This document shows positions 11,690 to 39,633 of a stretch of 50,059 nucleotides of DNA, piece after piece. The stretch covers positions 1 through 50,059 of the IMG/VR virus record IMGVR_UViG_3300027879_000002; one strand, 5' to 3'. Source of the DNA: a virus. Its lineage: Duplodnaviria > Caudoviricetes. How positions within the stretch are numbered: position 1 is the first letter of the stretch; each line of letters begins with the position of its first letter. Both the position numbers and the translations under genes were made by a program. The notes beneath the pieces were generated by a model that saw nothing but the letters and a program-made list of their open reading frames with translations, did not search any database and was not told where the DNA came from.

Positions 11690-12260
11690 CACCATAAACC
11701 GGGTTACGGCGCGCCACGCGGGTATACCCCTACCGGGTACCCGCTAACTCGTTAGCCTAGGTAACTAGCCTAGGTAACTACATTCGTTAGCCTAGCGTAC
11801 CAGTTTAGTTAGCGCGGCGTACTACCTACACTTAGCTAGGCTAACGGTAATCGTTAGCGGCGCGTACGACCGCCGGGTACGCCGTAGGGGGCGCCTAGGT
11901 ACCCGACCAGGCGGCGGGCGGCCGGTAGGGGCCGCTACGGGGCCGGGTAGGCCCAGTTTACGGGCCGCCTACCAGCGCAAACGCCGTACGCGGCCTAACG
12001 GGGGCGGGGTAGGGTAGTTACTAGGGTACCAGTTTTACGGGGCTTAGGGCCACGTACAATCGCACGCGGCGCTACGCGGCCGGTAGGGGCCGCCCCTAGG
12101 TGGTACCCGCGTAACTGGTAACGGCGCGTAGGTAACCGGTAACTTAAAATTACCGCAGTTTTTACCGCCTTAGGGGTAGCGCTAGCGGCCCCGGTACCGT
12201 AAAGTCGTAACTGTAAGGCCCCGCCGGGGCGGCGGGTGAGGGTAGGCCGCTTTACCGGAA
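11690..12260. other. non-coding TpA-rich, GA/TC/TG/AT-depleted block with TAGCCTAGGTAAC / CGTTAGCCTAG repeats; candidate genome end
   Basis: manual counts over 11701-12240: TA about 65, GA 3, TC 5, TG 4, AT 5, CA about 13; sits at the divergence point of transcription. Confidence 0.75.
12177..12205 (+). promoter_or_regulatory. phage promoter TAGCGC-N17-TAAAGT
   Basis: matches the genome-wide motif; upstream of the 3-gene operon. Confidence 0.7.
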
Positions 12261-13084: not shown

Positions 13085-14130
13085 CCATTTTCTGGCCCGG
13101 CTCACAGGCCCCAGACGTCCCCTAGGAGCCAGGAAATCACGAGGACGCGGGTAGTACGGCGACCAGTTTTTCGTCGGATACCGCCATTCTGGATCGCATG
13201 CAGCACCAGTTCTGGGGCCGCGCGGGCGCCGGAAAGCCCAGGAAATCGCCTGTAAACGCCAGGAAATCGGCCTAAGAAACGCCAGAATCGGGCGAATTTC
13301 CACCAGAAATTGGGCTAATTTCACCAGAAATAGCGTCGAGAATGTTGGCGAAATGGCGAATAATCACCACAATTTCGCCCATTTCGGCACCAGAAACAAG
13401 CGATTTACTGGTCATTTCAAGGAAAGCTGTCATTGCCATCGCCAGTTGTCGACGCGATTCGTCGCTAACTTTCAGATGTGACGTTTCTGGCCACAAAATG
13501 GCCTTTATAAATGCATTATACTCCGAATCTAGGAGCTGAAACTGTAGAGAATCGGACGAAATACTGGACTTTCTACCAGAATATTCGGATGAATTGTGCA
13601 TAATTTATTATAGCTCGAAATTCAGCCGATTTCTCGGATCGCTCTCCGCCCCCCTAGAATCACCGTATTCTGGTGTGTAATACCTGGTAGAACCCAGAAT
13701 ACCCCCCACATATTCTGGTATATTCTGGTATTCTGGGCGTGACCAGGGGAAACGCGAAATGTACGTAACTCACCGTAATCGACCTGACCAGAATTAGTAA
13801 TCGAAAATTACATATATTCTGGTATTCTGGGTCTGACCAGGGCATATGCTCGACCACAGTATCATACGATTCTAGCGCTTATTCTGGGCGTAACCAGGTG
13901 AAACAGTCGAAAATCGGACCAGAATACGCTCATTCGGGGGGGATTGAGAAATTCCGACCCAGGCGCCCCATGCCCGAAAACCCGATAGAACGAACACCAT
14001 AATCTGAAACCCGAGCGAACATAAATAACCATTCAAAGCCCGAATAGCCCCCGAATAATCCCCCGGAATAGCCATTCCATAACTGCAAGTTACCCGAACC
14101 CTACCCAAAGTTACCACAAAAAATTCCCCC
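13085..14130. repeat. AT-enriched non-coding block with many CCAG(G)AA/TTCTGG words and helically phased A/T tracts
   Basis: CCAG(G)AA at 13238, 13259, 13282, 13303, 13324, 13390; TATTCTGGG..T.ACCAGG at 13729, 13823, 13880. Confidence 0.8.
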
Positions 14131-14137
14131 TGCCCCC

Positions 14138-14166
14138 TAGCCAGCCCGCCCCACACCCCGTATACT
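14138..14166 (+). promoter_or_regulatory. phage promoter TAGCCA-N17-TATACT
   Basis: motif match with upstream AAAAAATT tract. Confidence 0.8.
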
Positions 14167-14626: not shown

Positions 14627-14677
14627 CCCGGCTGGCCGCGCTAGCCCCCAGAATTTCAGGAAACTTCTGCTGAGGGC

Positions 14678-14706
14678 TAGCGCGGCCCGGCTGTAGGCGG
14701 TAGGAT
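14678..14706 (+). promoter_or_regulatory. phage promoter TAGCGC-N17-TAGGAT inside a 14-bp inverted repeat
   Basis: IR arms 14634-14647 and 14674-14687. Confidence 0.7.
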
Positions 14707-14942: not shown

Positions 14943-14993
14943 CCGGAGCGCTAGCCCCGTAGGAGAAATCCCCAGGAAATTTCCTGCAGGGGC

Positions 14994-15022
14994 TAGCGCT
15001 AGGGCCAGAAATGGCGTAAGCT
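14994..15022 (+). promoter_or_regulatory. phage promoter TAGCGC-N17-TAAGCT inside a 12-bp inverted repeat
   Basis: IR arms 14947-14958 and 14989-15000. Confidence 0.7.
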
Positions 15023-16806: not shown

Positions 16807-16827
16807 GAAACGGCTACGCCCCAGGAC

Positions 16828-16856
16828 TAGCGAAATGCAGTCCTGGGGCGTATACT
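16828..16856 (+). promoter_or_regulatory. phage promoter TAGCGA-N17-TATACT in a 14-bp hairpin
   Basis: TACGCCCCAGGACT / AGTCCTGGGGCGTA. Confidence 0.8.
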
Positions 16857-18412: not shown

Positions 18413-18431
18413 AGTCTGTAGCCCGTACCCC

Positions 18432-18460
18432 TAGCCGGGGGCGGGCTACAGGCGTATACT
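18432..18460 (+). promoter_or_regulatory. phage promoter TAGCCG-N17-TATACT in a hairpin
   Basis: CTGTAGCCCG / CGGGCTACAG stem with TAGC in the loop region. Confidence 0.8.
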
Positions 18461-18714: not shown

Positions 18715-18742
18715 ATCGCATGGAATTACTGGCCCCTGCTAC

Positions 18743-18771
18743 TAGCGCGGCGGGGGCCAGTAGCGTATACT
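18743..18771 (+). promoter_or_regulatory. phage promoter TAGCGC-N17-TATACT in a hairpin
   Basis: TACTGGCCCC / GGGGCCAGTA stem. Confidence 0.85.
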
Positions 18772-19488: not shown

Positions 19489-19580
19489 GGCTTTGCTACA
19501 GGTGCGCCCGCCACGCCGGGGAGCGGTGGCACTGGTGCATCCGGCTGGCCTGCGACTGCCCCTGCCGGGGCCGGCAGTGA
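19485..19580 (+). CDS. 31-aa Cys-rich peptide (not in ORF track)
   Basis: ATGA coupling, AGGAGG RBS; MRLCYRCARHAGERWHWCIRLACDCPCRGRQ. Confidence 0.55.
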   Translation: MRLCYRCARHAGERWHWCIRLACDCPCRGRQ

Positions 19581-19691
19581 CGCGATTGTCGTAGTGGCTT
19601 AGGGGACAGAGATCGCATGCAGAGGGGTATACGCGGCCCTTACGGGGCCGCTATACTCCTCTGACCCACACCTAGGCGAGAGGAATAGCAG

Positions 19692-19943
19692 ATGGCCGGT
19701 ACGGCGGAGGAGAGGGCAGAGGCCAAGGAGGCCTTCGGAACCAAGAGCGGTGCGAAGCAGTACGTTGCCTGGTTCCTGGCGACGAGCTTGCAGGGGGTTT
19801 GCGAGAGCCCGGAGAAAATGCTCACAGACATGGGGTACAATCCAAAGTCCCTGAGCCCGGCCCAGATGCAGCGATTCGTGGATGGCGTGGCTGCGATCGA
19901 GGCGGCCCTGAAGCGTATGGCCGGTCCGCTTATGGAGGAGTAG
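19692..19943 (+). CDS. hypothetical protein
   Basis: GAGGA RBS; TATACT at 19652. Confidence 0.8.
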   Translation: MAGTAEERAEAKEAFGTKSGAKQYVAWFLATSLQGVCESPEKMLTDMGYNPKSLSPAQMQRFVDGVAAIEAALKRMAGPLMEE

Positions 19944-19947
19944 TGGA

Positions 19948-19987
19948 AGGGCCGGGTCTACCTGACGAGGGGAGGTAGACCCGGCCC
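19948..19987. terminator. 15-bp hairpin between convergent units
   Basis: GGGCCGGGTCTACCT / AGGTAGACCCGGCCC. Confidence 0.7.
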
Positions 19988-20039
19988 AGCTCTGGGGCGC
20001 ACCTTAGACGCAGCGCGTCATATCGTACCGAATTCCCAG

Positions 20040-20176
20040 CGTAGGGCCGGGAAGACCTTCCCAGTTCCCCTCCGTCTCATCCCGGAGGGGCATCTCTGGT
20101 GGGCTCGATCGACCCAGGGTCGGACGGGGCAGTCAGCCCTGAGGCCAGGCACTCCGGTGAACTTCCCGGCCCTACG
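20040..20176 (-). ncRNA. candidate structured small RNA of unknown family
   Basis: 15-bp terminal stem plus internal hairpins; 5' end lies 6 nt downstream of a consensus promoter. Confidence 0.65.
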
Positions 20177-20182
20177 ACTACG

Positions 20183-20211
20183 ACTATACGCCACAGCCTA
20201 TCCCCGCGCTA
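20183..20211 (-). promoter_or_regulatory. phage promoter TAGCGC-N17-TATAGT on the minus strand
   Basis: reverse complement of ACTATA (20183-88) and GCGCTA (20206-11). Confidence 0.75.
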
Positions 20212-20731
20212 GCTCTTCGCTCCACATTTCTTTCCGCAATTCAGAGGACTGGCGTGCACGACGTAGCGCGCACAGAGCGTGACGGGTAGCATCGCGGACG
20301 TGTTCGCTACCCTTAACGTACAGCCCCAGCGCTCTTAGCCGTTCGTCAGTGAGAGCCTGCTTGGCCTGGACGCGAGACTGGAACGTCACCCTGGCGTCGC
20401 TAAGGTCACCCCGGTGCTGGGCGTACAGGAGCATTGCACCGATGCGCGCGGGGCTAAGAGCAGAAGTGTCCCTGCTCTGGAAATGCGGATCGACATCCCA
20501 GCGCTCAACAACAAGAGCAGGGCCAACAAGGTAGTCAAGAGACTGCGTCTCACGAGCAAGCCGGGCTAGCAGAACTACCTGCTGAGGCTCGTGACCGGAA
20601 ACCTCGCCATAGTCCCATTCAATAATGCTGCTCTCCTCCCTCCCGAATACAGAATCGCGCGGTACTGTAAGCCTGCACCAGCCAGTTGTGCCGCCAGGAT
20701 CGATACCTATGACGTGTATATTCCTGAGCAT
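20198..20731 (-). CDS. RuvC-like Holliday junction resolvase
   Basis: VIGIDPGGTTGW, LVVE, AK, HVRDATRH. Confidence 0.8.
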   Translation of the reverse strand: MLRNIHVIGIDPGGTTGWCRLTVPRDSVFGREESSIIEWDYGEVSGHEPQQVVLLARLARETQSLDYLVGPALVVERWDVDPHFQSRDTSALSPARIGAMLLYAQHRGDLSDARVTFQSRVQAKQALTDERLRALGLYVKGSEHVRDATRHALCALRRARQSSELRKEMWSEELARG

Positions 20732-20905
20732 ATAACGACGTCCTATTCGAGAGGGATAGCTAAGCGTATCCTAGGGAGGCCCGAGAGGCGCACGAGGTAA
20801 CTTACCGGGAAAATGGGAAAGGGGCCGGACTGACCATCCGGCCCCTCTAGAGCTTCCCCAGGCGAAGGGAAAGGAAGGTCCCCGCGTGACTAAGGGCCAA
20901 CGGAT

Positions 20906-22858
20906 ATGACTATACCTCCCGCTTCGGATTCGGCGCTAGTCGTAGCCCATCAGCTGGTGGATATGGGGGTCCCCGTATTCGCCGCACGGCTGAATGCAGA
21001 TGGAACGCCGGATAGACAGGATAGAAGATGGCAGGGGTACCAGAAGAAGGTAGCTGGCGCACGATGCCATGCATCCATTAGCGGATTCAAGGATGGCGAG
21101 GCTCTATGTGCCGTTACCGGCGTGGTATTCGACGTCATTGATCACGATCTACAGAACGACCCTTCTGGCCTAGCGCTAAAGCAGATGTCAGAGGACCTTG
21201 GAGATTTCGGCCCTGAGGTTTATCTGGAAACCCGAACGCCAAGCGGAGGCACGCACCTCTGGGTGGTGCACCAGGATATAGGGACCCATCCAGGATTCAG
21301 GAAAGGGCTGGACTATAAGGGTGGCAATCCCGACGGTAGTAGTAGGGGATTCGTATTCCTTCCGCCTACCATCCGCAGGAGTAAGCGCGATGGGCAGATA
21401 CACCCCTATGAGTATCGCTCCGAGCTAACTCGGCCGGATCCTGACGACTTCTGCCAGGCCTTGTGCGACTACGTTCTTGCAGGTCGTGGCCAGAGAGAAG
21501 AGGAAGTAGAAAGGCCAGCCAGGGAGGAAGTCGATCGGCTACGCATGGCCTGCGTCGCAGCCGAGGCCGGGGGACAGAGAGCAGCGCTCCTACGTTACGT
21601 TCACGAGCTGGAGCGCAAGGGATACGCCAGGACCGATATTCTCAGGCTGCTGAAATCCCTGAAGCTTCCTGCCTATAATCCACGGCGCCCCTGGCGAGAG
21701 CGCGACTTCATGGGGCTGTTCCATCAGCGCGGGACGATCATTCCAGACGCGATCCCAGGCGAGCTTGATGGCATAGATAGCATTAAGCGCGTAACGTCAG
21801 ACGCGGCGCGCTGGCTTAGAGAGATAACGCCGACTCAGCTGAAATGGCTAGCCGCCCCATTGTTCCCATTCGGATGCCTCGTGATCATAGACGGAGACCC
21901 CGGCATCGGTAAGTCTGTTCTGACTCTTGCTATGATGTGCAGGGCATCCCGAGGCGAGCCGATATTCCCAGGTGATCCAGGAATGGGAGAGCCAATAAAC
22001 TGCGCTATAGTCGGAGCCGAAGACGATCTAAGCTCTGTGGTGATCCCTAGAATCCTGGCCAATGGCGGAGACATAGACCGTTTCGTCACGATGCCCGTCA
22101 AGAGGAAGAGGGGAGGAGGACTAGAGCTGCTTACATTCCCAGACGGTGTAAATAAGCTGGAGGCTATGCTAGCGGCTAGCGGCGCCAGATTCTGCACCAT
22201 AGACCCTATATCCTCATTTCTAGGAGAGGATATCAGCAGCCACAATGACGCCAGCGTACGCCGAGCGCTGCAGCCTGTGGTAGAAGTAGCGCAGCGTCAG
22301 CAATGCTGTATATTTCTGGTCAGGCATCTGAACAAGGACAATAGCATGAAAGCCATGTACCGGGGTGGCGGTTCCATAGCCTTCTCCGGGATAGCCCGAT
22401 CAGGTCTGATAGCTGGAACCCTTCCTGATGGTAGTGGCTACGGCATAGCCCAGGTTAAGAGCAGTAACGCAGAGGGACTAGAAGGCTGCCTGGCGTATAC
22501 CATAGATAAGCAGACGGTGAAGATTCCGGGCTCTGGCGTCACAGAGATGCCACTCATCAGATGGCTGGGACAGAGCGACTATACGGCTGACGATCTGGTT
22601 CGGGGCGAGGACGGGCGTAACGGAAACGGCAGAGCTCCAATTCAGCAGCAGATGGTTGAGGAATGCCTGCTAGCGCTTATCCAGGAATATGGCGGTAGTC
22701 CTATTCCGGCCGGTGAGGCGCTGGCCTACATAAAGGCTGATGGCTGTAGCACTTCGCCCATAGTTCTGGCCAAGGCTCGCGAGGCTGTAGGGCTGCGCTC
22801 AGTTCCGCAGAAAAGTGAGACAGGGAGGATGCAGGGCTGGGCCTGGATCTACGGGTAG
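20906..22858 (+). CDS. bifunctional primase-polymerase fused to an AAA_25/RecA-like helicase
   Basis: VIDHD, TPSGGTHLW; Walker A GDPGIGKS, TIDPI, VRHLNK, GSIAF. Confidence 0.9.
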   Translation: MTIPPASDSALVVAHQLVDMGVPVFAARLNADGTPDRQDRRWQGYQKKVAGARCHASISGFKDGEALCAVTGVVFDVIDHDLQNDPSGLALKQMSEDLGDFGPEVYLETRTPSGGTHLWVVHQDIGTHPGFRKGLDYKGGNPDGSSRGFVFLPPTIRRSKRDGQIHPYEYRSELTRPDPDDFCQALCDYVLAGRGQREEEVERPAREEVDRLRMACVAAEAGGQRAALLRYVHELERKGYARTDILRLLKSLKLPAYNPRRPWRERDFMGLFHQRGTIIPDAIPGELDGIDSIKRVTSDAARWLREITPTQLKWLAAPLFPFGCLVIIDGDPGIGKSVLTLAMMCRASRGEPIFPGDPGMGEPINCAIVGAEDDLSSVVIPRILANGGDIDRFVTMPVKRKRGGGLELLTFPDGVNKLEAMLAASGARFCTIDPISSFLGEDISSHNDASVRRALQPVVEVAQRQQCCIFLVRHLNKDNSMKAMYRGGGSIAFSGIARSGLIAGTLPDGSGYGIAQVKSSNAEGLEGCLAYTIDKQTVKIPGSGVTEMPLIRWLGQSDYTADDLVRGEDGRNGNGRAPIQQQMVEECLLALIQEYGGSPIPAGEALAYIKADGCSTSPIVLAKAREAVGLRSVPQKSETGRMQGWAWIYG

Positions 22859-36219: not shown

Positions 36220-37241
36220 AGTTCGTCAACCTTCATCACCACAGCACCTTTAGCTTTGGTGACGGGTTCGGTACCCCGGCTCAGCACGTAGCCCGCGCGG
36301 CTGAGCTGGGGTACACGGCTATCGCCCTGACCGAGCATGGCAATGTCAGCTCGCACTTCCAGCTGGAGAAGTCTGCGCTAAAGGCAGGCGTAAAGCCCAT
36401 CTTCGGTCTGGAGGCATATTGCGGCCCCGTGGAAGAGAACGCCAGGCAGCAGTTCAAGAACCACCTAACGATCCTGGCCGAGAACCTGGATGGGTATCGC
36501 GGACTGAATAGGATAGTCACGCAGTCCTACCTCGATTACTACCACCACCCCACAGTTTCCGGAAGAAGCCTCTCAGACAACAAGTCTGGATTGATCACTC
36601 TATCGGGATGCTCAGGCTCTCTTCTGGCCTGTACCCTCCTCGGGGGGAAGGGCATCCCCGAGCCCACCTCTAGGTCAGAGAAAGTTCAGTACTTCAGCAA
36701 TGCCATGGAAGTAGCGGCAAAGTTCCAGCGTGCGTTCGGCAAAAGCTACTTCCTAGAGGTACAGCATTTCCACGAGCTTGAGAAAACGATGTATATTAAC
36801 ATGGCATACGCGAGGATTGGACGGGAGCTTGGAATCCCCCTTGTGGTCACCGGGGACGTTCACTATCCCAATCCGGACGAAGGCGAGATGCAGGCTGTAC
36901 TCCACGCCGTACATCGCGGGCATCACTCTGTAGATGACGCCATGAGAAAGTGGAACTACGAAGTGCCAATGACACTTCCAGAGTCAGACGACGCATTGCT
37001 GAACAGGCTACTCCTTACCGGACTTTCATTCGAAGAGGCTTTCGATGCCATAGAAACCAGCTCTAGGATAGCCGAGCGCTGCAATGTAACGCTACCGAAA
37101 GCGGAGCGTCTCGAGTATCCTATCAGCAAGGAGGACCACGAGCCATGGACGAAGAGCTTACGGATAGGCTTACGAAGCTGGACAAGTTCCTGGAAGTCGC
37201 TAATAAATCCGAATTCATCAGGAGTCTTCTCTGGTCCATGA
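36216..37241 (+). CDS. dnaE: DnaE-like polymerase, PHP-domain subunit
   Basis: LHHHSTFSFGDG, ALTEHG, KPIFGLEAY, HLTILA, TGDVHY. Confidence 0.9.
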   Translation: MKFVNLHHHSTFSFGDGFGTPAQHVARAAELGYTAIALTEHGNVSSHFQLEKSALKAGVKPIFGLEAYCGPVEENARQQFKNHLTILAENLDGYRGLNRIVTQSYLDYYHHPTVSGRSLSDNKSGLITLSGCSGSLLACTLLGGKGIPEPTSRSEKVQYFSNAMEVAAKFQRAFGKSYFLEVQHFHELEKTMYINMAYARIGRELGIPLVVTGDVHYPNPDEGEMQAVLHAVHRGHHSVDDAMRKWNYEVPMTLPESDDALLNRLLLTGLSFEEAFDAIETSSRIAERCNVTLPKAERLEYPISKEDHEPWTKSLRIGLRSWTSSWKSLINPNSSGVFSGP

Positions 37242-37396
37242 TGCTTCTTGATGCTGAGAGTGTTCTGCACATCACCGACCCCAACGAGCTAGGCCCGGCC
37301 ACCTATCTGCATGACAAGGCACTGGGGCTCCTTCGGGATCAGGGTTTCAGTGAATCTCAGATAATTGCCATTATCGATTCAAGGCCGTCTATATGA
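37145..37396 (+). CDS. 83-aa hypothetical protein inserted between the DnaE halves
   Basis: AAGGAGG RBS; ATGA-coupled to the catalytic subunit. Confidence 0.7.
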   Translation: MDEELTDRLTKLDKFLEVANKSEFIRSLLWSMMLLDAESVLHITDPNELGPATYLHDKALGLLRDQGFSESQIIAIIDSRPSI

Positions 37397-39633
37397 ACTC
37401 AGAAGAGCTTCTTGTCCAGTGGTGCCGGTTTGGATGGAAGTACAGGGGAATAGGCAAGAGGCCGCAGGCTGAGCAAGACTGGTATGCCGAGCGTGTGCGG
37501 TACGAGCTCAGCCTGATGCTAGAGAAAAAGCTAGCAGACTTCATGCTGTTCACGAGCGACGCGATCAGATGGGCAAAGGACAATGGCATCCCTATCGGGC
37601 CAGGACGCGGATCGACTGCTGCAAGCGTTGTCGCCTGGCTCCTGCGAATCACTGAGATTGACCCATACCGATATCAGGGAATGCTCTTCGAGCGGTTCCT
37701 CGATGTTTCCCGTGCTGACCCTCCGGATATTGACATTGACTGCTCAGACGAGCGACGGGGAGACGTTCGTGATTACCTGGCAGCTAAGTACGGAGCAGAA
37801 TGCGTCGGGCAGATAGCCAACTTCACCCGCTATCGTGCCAAGAACGCTCTAGTCGACATAGCTAGGGTGTACAACATTCCGATAGCAGCCAAAGAGCAGG
37901 TAGCTAGCCTGATTATAGAGCGATCTGGCGGAGACTCTAGATTCGATAGCAGCCTGAGAGATACGGTTGAGATGTTTCCAGATGCCCGGGCCATATTTGA
38001 TCGATACCCTGACTTCTGGAAGGCAACGAAGCTAGAGGGCAATGTGCGTGGCATGGGGGTTCATGCAGCCGGGCTGATTGTAGCCAACTCCCCACTCACC
38101 GACATATGCGCCGTATACGAGCGAGAAGGCGTCCGCGTCCTAAGCATTGACAAGTACGACATCGAGTATGTTGATGCCCTGAAGCTAGACTTCCTCGGGC
38201 TCAGCACAATGGGGATGATAGCTCGCTGTCTCGAGATGGCGGGGCTGACGCTGGAGGACCTGTATGCGATTCCGGACACGGACCCCGATACGATCGAGAT
38301 ATTTCGTCGTGGCGACGTCACCGGCGTATTTCAGTTCGAAGGAAGGGCCACTCGTCTCGTCAACAGAGATGTTGTACCTGAGCATTTCGCTCACATCGCG
38401 GACATCAACGCGCTATCTAGACCTGGTCCGCTATTCTCCGGCCAGACTGCCGAATATGTCGAAGTGCGACATGGTCGATCTAGGGCCGAATCGCTGCACC
38501 CGATGGTGGACGATATCACTAAGGACACTTACGGGCAGATCATCTACCAGGAACAGATTCTGCGTATCCTTCGAGATATGGGGGGATTTGACTGGTTCTC
38601 GGTTGGCCAGATCAGAAGGATCATATCCAAGAAGCTAGGCGAGGCCGCCTTCCAGATGAGCTACAATCAGTTCGCTGATGGCTCTGAGCGCTTCGGGGTG
38701 AGTCGAGAGCTAAGCCTCAAGATCTGGAAGCGTCTGGTTACCTCTGGAACCTATAGCTTCAACATAGCTCATGCCATCAGCTACAGCATGATAGCCTTCT
38801 GGACAGCCTGGCTCAAGGCGCATTACCCCAGGGAGTTCTACGCGGCCTCTCTCGCGAAGGCTGACGAGGAGCAGCAATTCAGGCTGATGCGTGATGCGCT
38901 AGCGCATGACGTACAGATAGTCCCACCCATACTAAACGCTAGTCGTAGTAACTGGCGACCCGTACAGAGCCTAGGGATCGTAGCAGGATGGCAGCAGATA
39001 CCGGGTATAGGAGAGAGCAAGGCCAGAAGGATCGACGAGCTTCGCGCCCTCGGAAGGTTCGGAAGCTGGGCTGACCTGGAGAAGATCCCAGGTATCGGCC
39101 CTAAGACAGTAAGCAAGATGGAGACATTCTCCACCTCGCACGACCCCTTTGGATTGCAGCGTACCGCGAGGACGATGGAGCGAGCGCTGGCCTGGATCCG
39201 GACCCAGGATCGAGTTCCGCTTCCGACACACAACGGAGCAGAGGTTGCAGCAATCCAGGTAAAGGAGAGATACGGAGCGGCAGCACAGAAGAACTATGGC
39301 AAGGGTCCCAGGGTCATATATGCAGGCATCATCAAGACCCGGAACTATCAGGATGCCGTTGAGAACCGTCGGTCACGTACCGGAGAAGAAGCTGAGGATA
39401 TCCTCAGGACGCTGAAGCGGCCGGATCTTCTGGAGTACTGCTCTCTTAGATGCTACGACACAACGGACGAAGAGGTATACATTCGCGTGAATCGATTTCT
39501 ATTCCCCCGGCTCCGCGCTATTATTCAGTCAATAGCCGTAGAGCACGACGTAGTTGTTTGCGTTGGGAATCGGATAGCTGGCTTCGGAACCCCCGTGATG
39601 GCAGAGAAGCTGTACGTTATAGATCCGGACTGA
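37393..39633 (+). CDS. dnaE: DnaE-like DNA polymerase III alpha, catalytic subunit
   Basis: GPGRGS, FERFL...PDIDID, HAAG, KLDFLGL, GVFQFE, YQEQ, YSFNIAHA. Confidence 0.95.
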   Translation: MNSEELLVQWCRFGWKYRGIGKRPQAEQDWYAERVRYELSLMLEKKLADFMLFTSDAIRWAKDNGIPIGPGRGSTAASVVAWLLRITEIDPYRYQGMLFERFLDVSRADPPDIDIDCSDERRGDVRDYLAAKYGAECVGQIANFTRYRAKNALVDIARVYNIPIAAKEQVASLIIERSGGDSRFDSSLRDTVEMFPDARAIFDRYPDFWKATKLEGNVRGMGVHAAGLIVANSPLTDICAVYEREGVRVLSIDKYDIEYVDALKLDFLGLSTMGMIARCLEMAGLTLEDLYAIPDTDPDTIEIFRRGDVTGVFQFEGRATRLVNRDVVPEHFAHIADINALSRPGPLFSGQTAEYVEVRHGRSRAESLHPMVDDITKDTYGQIIYQEQILRILRDMGGFDWFSVGQIRRIISKKLGEAAFQMSYNQFADGSERFGVSRELSLKIWKRLVTSGTYSFNIAHAISYSMIAFWTAWLKAHYPREFYAASLAKADEEQQFRLMRDALAHDVQIVPPILNASRSNWRPVQSLGIVAGWQQIPGIGESKARRIDELRALGRFGSWADLEKIPGIGPKTVSKMETFSTSHDPFGLQRTARTMERALAWIRTQDRVPLPTHNGAEVAAIQVKERYGAAAQKNYGKGPRVIYAGIIKTRNYQDAVENRRSRTGEEAEDILRTLKRPDLLEYCSLRCYDTTDEEVYIRVNRFLFPRLRAIIQSIAVEHDVVVCVGNRIAGFGTPVMAEKLYVIDPD

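Follow-up and report, generated by a model that had tools for sequence, protein, structure and literature searches.

The window analysed here, by which we mean the whole stretch of DNA at its full length, is a 50,059-base virus record with protein matches to terminase, primase-helicase, exonuclease, annealing protein, thymidylate synthase, DNA polymerase and endolysin. On its minus strand, at 20198-20731, lies the gene for a RuvC-like Holliday junction resolvase of 177 aa, an assignment drawn from sequence, a fold model (pLDDT 94) and a structure comparison in which the top matches are Holliday junction resolvases, the best being T. thermophilus RuvC (E 2.5e-6); D11, E76, H144 and D147 are the candidate catalytic residues. 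A PDB sequence search with the RuvC profile returned nothing useful. The phage records that match the protein are actinobacteriophages without exception (215/215), and RuvC-like resolvase is the annotation on many of 25 records among the matches listed (of 215). The sole sequencing run that contains the stretch is a soil metagenome of the DNA type; none of the RNA type was found among the runs listed, and no variants in the stretch were seen in that single DNA run, which may itself be the source of the record. Cumulative GC skew reaches its minimum at ~18 kb in the window, away from the locus described below. Elsewhere, the DNA polymerase gene (PHROG 405) is apparently split into ORFs 36216-37241 and 37393-39633 with an open frame of ~50 codons between them, and an AT-richer non-coding stretch at 13570-14140 carries many ATTCTGG/CCAGAAT repeats in both directions, near a cluster of TAGCCTAG repeats at 11720-11950; these two repeat stretches may mark an origin or the end of the genome.

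Directly at the end of ruvC, on the minus strand, is a promoter (20183-20211) with a -35 box TAGCGC at 20211-20206, a spacer of 17 nt and a -10 box TATAGT at 20188-20183, the -35 box sitting within the last codons of the ruvC ORF. An earlier reading of this DNA, made from the letters alone and referred to here as the sequence-only reading, had described it as a full consensus promoter. The boxes, the spacer and the placement of the -35 box stand, but the consensus is not that of sigma-70: a generic sigma-70 scan (TTGACA) gave no match, and the element belongs instead to a phage-wide family, TAGC(G/C)N-N17-TA(T/C)A(C/G)T, that recurs before many genes. Copies of the family occur between 12177 and 27770 of the window and at 20938(-), 32266 and 41170, and several overlap long inverted repeats (14634-14687, 14947-15000, 16815-16852, 18416-18451 and 18727-18762), an overlap that gives promoter-gene-hairpin cassettes. 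When a matrix was built from 13 other sites before genes, picked by eye and with 20211(-) excluded, 20211(-) was the top non-training match at 23.3 bits, the next scoring 12.6, and ten locally shuffled genomes yielded one match as high. The test is partly circular because the sites were selected with the same hexamers, against which it can be set that the training sites sit at gene starts and point in the coding direction.

What distinguishes this copy of the promoter is the sequence that it faces. By eye, all 14 of the other inspected copies have a start codon within ~90 nt, either led by a Shine-Dalgarno (SD) sequence or leaderless, and 20211(-) is the only one of the 15 without a nearby gene start; no SD-led start was found downstream of it, the starts at 20152, 20093 and 20080 having no clear SD. 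The gap had been called free of open reading frames, which is not literally so, since a GTG frame of 58 codons (20194-20018, minus strand) begins upstream of the predicted transcription start and spans the gap; it has neither a homologue nor an exact record in the protein collection, and is probably not a gene. Facing the promoter is a convergent gene for an 83-aa protein (19692-19943, plus strand) with a promoter-like site of its own near 19629. The protein has no family match and, by eye, no long hydrophobic run; the atlas matches, which were eukaryotic GLTP-like clusters, were not accepted. The region before this gene (19623-19670) is a near-palindromic promoter region with TATAC on both strands, and is a possible operator.

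From its spacing to the -10 box, the +1 of the minus-strand promoter is predicted at about 20175-20176, which agrees with the earlier proposal that transcription would begin where a long closing stem begins. The stem is a perfect 15-bp inverted repeat, as that proposal had it, whose 5' arm (20162-20176, also recovered by folding) and 3' arm (20040-20054), both on the minus strand, are 107 nt apart and close a domain of 137 nt. The 137-mer folds with a z of -4.05, none of 300 shuffles being as stable, and the result holds on either strand; the signal stems from the closing stem, and the 107-nt interior alone shows no excess folding (z -0.53, with 87 of 300 shuffles as stable). Pairs of 15-mer arms within 150 nt number four in the window, as against two across 100 shuffled genomes, and since those in the window come from three long hairpins, long stems are habitual in this phage. 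Inside the domain, the 5' part (20100-20161) is occupied by competing weak folds with pair probabilities of at most ~0.55, and the only confident structure is a hairpin at 20061-20099, also on the minus strand, in which CCAG/CUGG and CCCCUCCG/CGGAGGGG pair with a probability of ~0.9 and which locks up a G-rich, SD-like strand. Thus, of the enclosed hairpins read from the sequence, the one formed by CCCCUCCG/CGGAGGGG on its CCAG/CUGG base is borne out, but the GGGC/GCCC hairpin, with a pair probability of ~0.5, is not firmly formed.

The domain is followed by a linker (19988-20039, minus strand) and by a hairpin at 19949-19987 with a perfect 15-bp stem, the 9-nt loop of which (19964-19972) reads C-rich (CCCCUCGUC) on the minus strand. 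Further structure had been claimed all the way to this hairpin; the hairpin itself is exact, but the sequence from 19985 to 20039 is not unusually folded (z -0.78). The convergent 83-aa gene stops 6 nt ahead of the hairpin, which is probably a two-way terminator as well as the 3' end of the RNA. Nothing resembling a terminator lies at nt 137, and because the hairpin at 19949-19987 is the first such element, a primary RNA of ~230 nt is more probable than the ~137 nt originally supposed. Within the RNA itself, the C-rich loop is able to pair with the G-rich strand of the inner hairpin (-17.9 kcal/mol, uncontrolled for chance), which hints at a possible switch.

Searches for known families and for homologues of the RNA found neither. 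Rfam 15, including 6S/Ms1, Y RNA/YrlA, 6C, riboswitches, ribozymes and CRISPR repeats, gave no match in the window, the best hit of Rfam models on 19500-20950 having an E of 0.11 and all falling far under the gathering threshold, and ARAGORN found no tRNA or tmRNA. The initial statement that no family could be recognised is upheld by these searches, and with no Rfam match the suggestions of a 6S- or Y-like decoy or an antitoxin mimic are left unsupported. Among the RuvC homologues listed, 70 of 120 were aligned, and 80 viral and 80 metagenome loci were fetched; in these 160 loci blastn and nhmmer found no homologue of the RNA except in L112, which is this phage's own contig, and none was found in 33 whole virus records or, by blastn, among INPHARED phages. 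At E 0.05, a single-sequence covariance model of the 137-nt RNA recognised none of the 63 virus records searched, and its best E over 67 loci was 0.081. An exact 15-mer scan of viral contigs returned 29 loci, all of them lacking the partner arm, and neither a pattern scan for both arms of the stem nor a search of viral contigs with the extended promoter pattern of this phage gave a match. The nearest RuvC proteins (P0002, P0003 and P0004, at 67-69%) are known as proteins only, and scans for close relatives with the window RuvC or with the P0003 protein confirmed none. The literature search found no paper on this RNA or on the motifs of relatives described below, supplementary motif tables lying outside the search.

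The place behind ruvC is variously filled in related phages. Among 59 distinct relatives (identity of 42% or more, with 100 nt or more of DNA after the gene), 20 carry the promoter pattern, which was drawn up post hoc, near the ruvC stop, compared with none of 174 windows inside ruvC. What follows ruvC is, in many relatives, a gene or a simple hairpin. In L113, the closest fetched relative (66%), the same type of promoter drives a protein gene that is a homologue of window ORF 18176, located in this phage on the other strand at a distance of 1.8 kb. In a sister clade (L039, L116, L120 and L124; L032, L042, L045, L046, L049, L051, L052, L054 and L127), the ruvC-end promoter drives a structured stretch of 130-390 nt and, after it, a conserved gene that is absent from the window.

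Two covarying motifs make up this structured sequence. Unit 1 is a closed domain of ~115 nt in which a closing stem encloses AAGUYAGCCGCU, a hairpin (often with a CU-NNN-AA-type loop of 7 nt), GUAUAG, a second hairpin and GCGGUA. Of its six members, four are at the ruvC end (L039:3573-3693, L116:1081-1205, L120:3538-3651 and L124:3590-3706) and two, matched by the model outside its training set with E ~1e-9, are away from ruvC (L389:1501-1628 and L390:1501-1586, minus strand); in an alignment fitted to the model, both partners have changed in 13 of the 29 pairs. A unit-1 pattern scan of 120 loci found as members, among those listed (GC >0.58 or flanking motif), only L231, which is the same as L039, and L270. 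Unit 2 (L042:3578-3692 and ten like loci in alignment A5) pairs a GGAGGYGRUGCKAU motif, often with a start and a stop in the few codons after it, with a 14-bp stem at a distance of 29-41 nt that begins GGGCCGG or similar and directly precedes the SD of a conserved gene beginning MLE(P/A)GF. Its loop is C-rich and G-poor in 11 of 11 aligned relatives, CACGCCCUCAUAA in several, and 7 of 14 pairs changed on both sides among the 11 sequences. Rfam gave no match of note on six sister-clade loci, including four of the six unit-1 loci. In the window itself, a hairpin at 20820-20846, between ruvC and the primase gene, matches the motif-copy hairpin of L389 in its core and CUGACCA loop over 16 nt; its match to the unit-1 model is weak (E 0.4) and may be due to chance.

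Homology of the window RNA to these units is suggested by two likenesses. In three distinct relatives (L116, L120, and L039, which is the same as L123), CCGG(G)AAG stands just after the -10 box and its complement follows 92-110 nt later; the window RNA has the same closing-stem layout, 107 nt apart, under a pattern defined after both had been seen, and four unrelated CCGG(G)AAG closing pairs occur in the 160 loci. The 5' motif of unit 2 is weakly present in the window linker at 20035-20021 (2.6 bits), 33 nt before the GGGCCGG hairpin, with p ~0.02 for the spacing range, again post hoc. The unit-1 model did not match the window RNA at E <=5, the window interior has none of the unit-1 blocks AGCCGCU, GUAUAG and GCGGUA, and the unit-2 model on the window found the hairpin only (E 1.4, sixth of 21). 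Homology goes no further than suggestion because both likeness tests are post hoc and the covariance models disagree with them. As the window RNA has no homologue and the models of its relatives fail to recognise it, it shows no covariation of its own.

Because no gene follows this copy of the phage promoter, but a long stem and then a terminator-like hairpin, the product is likely a small RNA, and we consider it probable that a stand-alone phage sRNA is made. A discrete sRNA, as the sequence-only reading had it, remains the best account of a strong family promoter, no SD-led start, a terminator-like hairpin and a convergent gene, albeit at ~230 nt in place of 137. The strong copy of the phage promoter at the ruvC end would drive a non-coding RNA of about that length, predicted to fold into the 137-nt domain closed by the 15-bp stem, the linker and the 3' hairpin, and to terminate at 19949-19987. 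The closing stem might protect the 5' end, or might be cut by RNase III with release of the closed domain, and the RNA may descend from the two-unit leader of the sister clade and have outlived its downstream gene. As to function, our preferred, though tentative, reading is that the RNA damps translation in trans, the C-rich loop of the 3' hairpin pairing with G-rich ribosome-binding sites by analogy to 6C/B11. It was chosen because the feature that this RNA has in common with the relatives is a very stable stem capped by a C-rich loop, and because B11/6C of Actinobacteria represses by way of C-rich loops that pair with ribosome-binding sites (PMC10470900). Pairing of RNA segments with 38 start regions of the phage was not above that of shuffles (null fractions 0.29-0.70), and exact complementarity to the phage's own genome was limited to chance-like lengths of 10-12 nt. 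GC-rich terminators often resemble a hairpin with a C-rich loop, and termination of the convergent gene accounts in full for the 3' hairpin, which speaks against translational damping.

Two readings are close rivals of translational damping, each somewhat doubtful in itself. The stand-alone sRNA may act through its 137-nt closed domain, serving as decoy or sponge against an RNA-binding protein or a defence nuclease of the host, with the 3' hairpin a mere terminator. That the closing stem begins at the predicted +1, and that a covarying closed unit occupies the same slot in relatives, fits such a role, and the occurrence of unit 1 away from ruvC in two non-training records suggests that units of this kind behave like movable modules; the interior of the window RNA, however, lacks the conserved blocks of unit 1, is not unusually folded and shows no repeated protein-binding motif. 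Alternatively, and about as plausibly as the decoy, the locus may be an orphaned leader or neutral leftover of a rearrangement that removed or inverted the driven gene, its stems serving to end and stabilise the ruvC mRNA and to insulate it from the convergent early genes. Here the L113 arrangement, in which the same promoter type drives the homologue of ORF 18176, and the sister clade, in which the structured stretch is the leader of a conserved gene missing from the window, are both in accord, as is the frequency of long perfect inverted repeats between the genes of this phage. A terminator, however, needs no new upstream promoter, and a promoter near consensus together with a 15-bp stem kept perfect across 107 nt suggests upkeep, contrary to a leftover. 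A more elaborate form of the decoy idea, which we regard as quite improbable, would make the ruvC-end promoter of this actinophage clade a slot for swappable RNA decoys that soak up host anticodon nucleases (VapC-type toxins). RNase III would cut out the conserved CCGG(G)AAG closing stem and free an interchangeable interior, the window RNA with its CUGAC-loop hairpin being a diverged member. The interiors of the relatives carry short hairpins with loops of the CU-NNN-AA type, and unit 2 carries CUCAUAA, loops that we take to resemble tRNA anticodon loops.

Other readings fare less well than the two close rivals. Convergent promoters share a hairpin without a strong U tract, so read-through overlap is possible, and the RNA could in principle act as a cis-antisense or by transcription interference on the 83-aa gene, in a layout like that of type I toxin-antitoxin systems. 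This is unlikely, as the 83-aa protein has neither the hydrophobic run nor a family match, and the overlap is confined to the hairpin unless termination leaks. Mimicry of a CRISPR repeat of actinobacterial type I-G, in the manner of Racr/Cracr, was considered because the 3' arm and the bases next to it are repeat-like and are followed by a stretch of spacer length and a terminator, the order found in CracrVA1 (10.1101/2024.10.29.618823), and because an alignment with the 5' half of one real I-G repeat agrees in 15 of its 17 columns, the other two being a mismatch and a gap. When six distinct real I-G repeats were aligned over their whole length, however, the site ranked between 34th and 2159th of 5000 windows; the conserved 3' handle is absent, the hybrid pattern occurs in 0 of 401 genomes, and no CRISPR-DR family matches, other CRISPR types having been covered through Rfam. 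This candidate was rejected as very improbable. Least credible of all is the proposal that the RNA is a partner or guide of the RuvC-like nuclease, to which adjacency, and the structured sequence that one sister clade has after ruvC, lend some colour. Since the nuclease folds as an ordinary RuvC, matching stand-alone dimeric resolvases with its 177 aa and no extra domain, such a role is unlikely, and the content behind ruvC is varied: 39 of 59 relatives are without even the promoter pattern, and the slot in L113 holds a protein gene.

The locus remains a good candidate, not a discovery. It is a sharply bounded ncRNA candidate, with a promoter from a clearly defined family of the phage on one side and an end resembling a terminator on the other, and its study has brought out two covarying RNA motifs without an Rfam match in related soil phages. 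Should the RNA act in trans, it would represent a phage tool for tuning translation or for blunting host defence.

As generally defined, the RNA-guided RuvC nucleases TnpB, IscB and Cas12 are large, multi-domain proteins with RNA-binding regions, and are always found beside their omega or guide RNA. By contrast, the window protein is a plain RuvC fold of 177 aa, with no constant RNA in its relatives. The window RNA falls in no family tested, but it can be set beside several known systems. Racr and Cracr are small stand-alone phage RNA anti-CRISPRs with their own promoter and terminator (PMC10651486; 10.1101/2024.10.29.618823), a layout that the window RNA shares without significant likeness to the six I-G repeats or to Rfam CRISPR repeats. 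Intergenic ncRNAs have been described in the actinobacteriophages WC1 (nc_1-3), D29, L5, Giles (~100 nt) and Kampy, no function being assigned to them in these accounts, and those of WC1, D29, L5 and Giles are abundant (PMC10986025, PMC5488031). The window RNA resembles them in being from an actinobacterial phage, intergenic and without an assigned function; they were seen by RNA-seq, whereas it is predicted and has no blastn match in INPHARED. With 6C/B11 it has in common a C-rich loop on a stable hairpin that is in principle able to pair with G-rich ribosome-binding sites, although 6C/B11 has two adjacent C-rich-loop hairpins where the window RNA has one and no Rfam match, and unlike 6C/B11 it is phage-encoded and has a 137-nt closed domain upstream. 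The sister-clade leaders enter a protein gene, whereas the window RNA ends at a convergent gene and has an entirely different interior; the two nevertheless share the same place and the ruvC-end promoter, the CCGG(G)AAG stem in three of the relatives, and, by what is a weak match in the window RNA, a GRUGCKAU-type motif that precedes by ~33 nt a GGGCCGG stem whose loop is C-rich.
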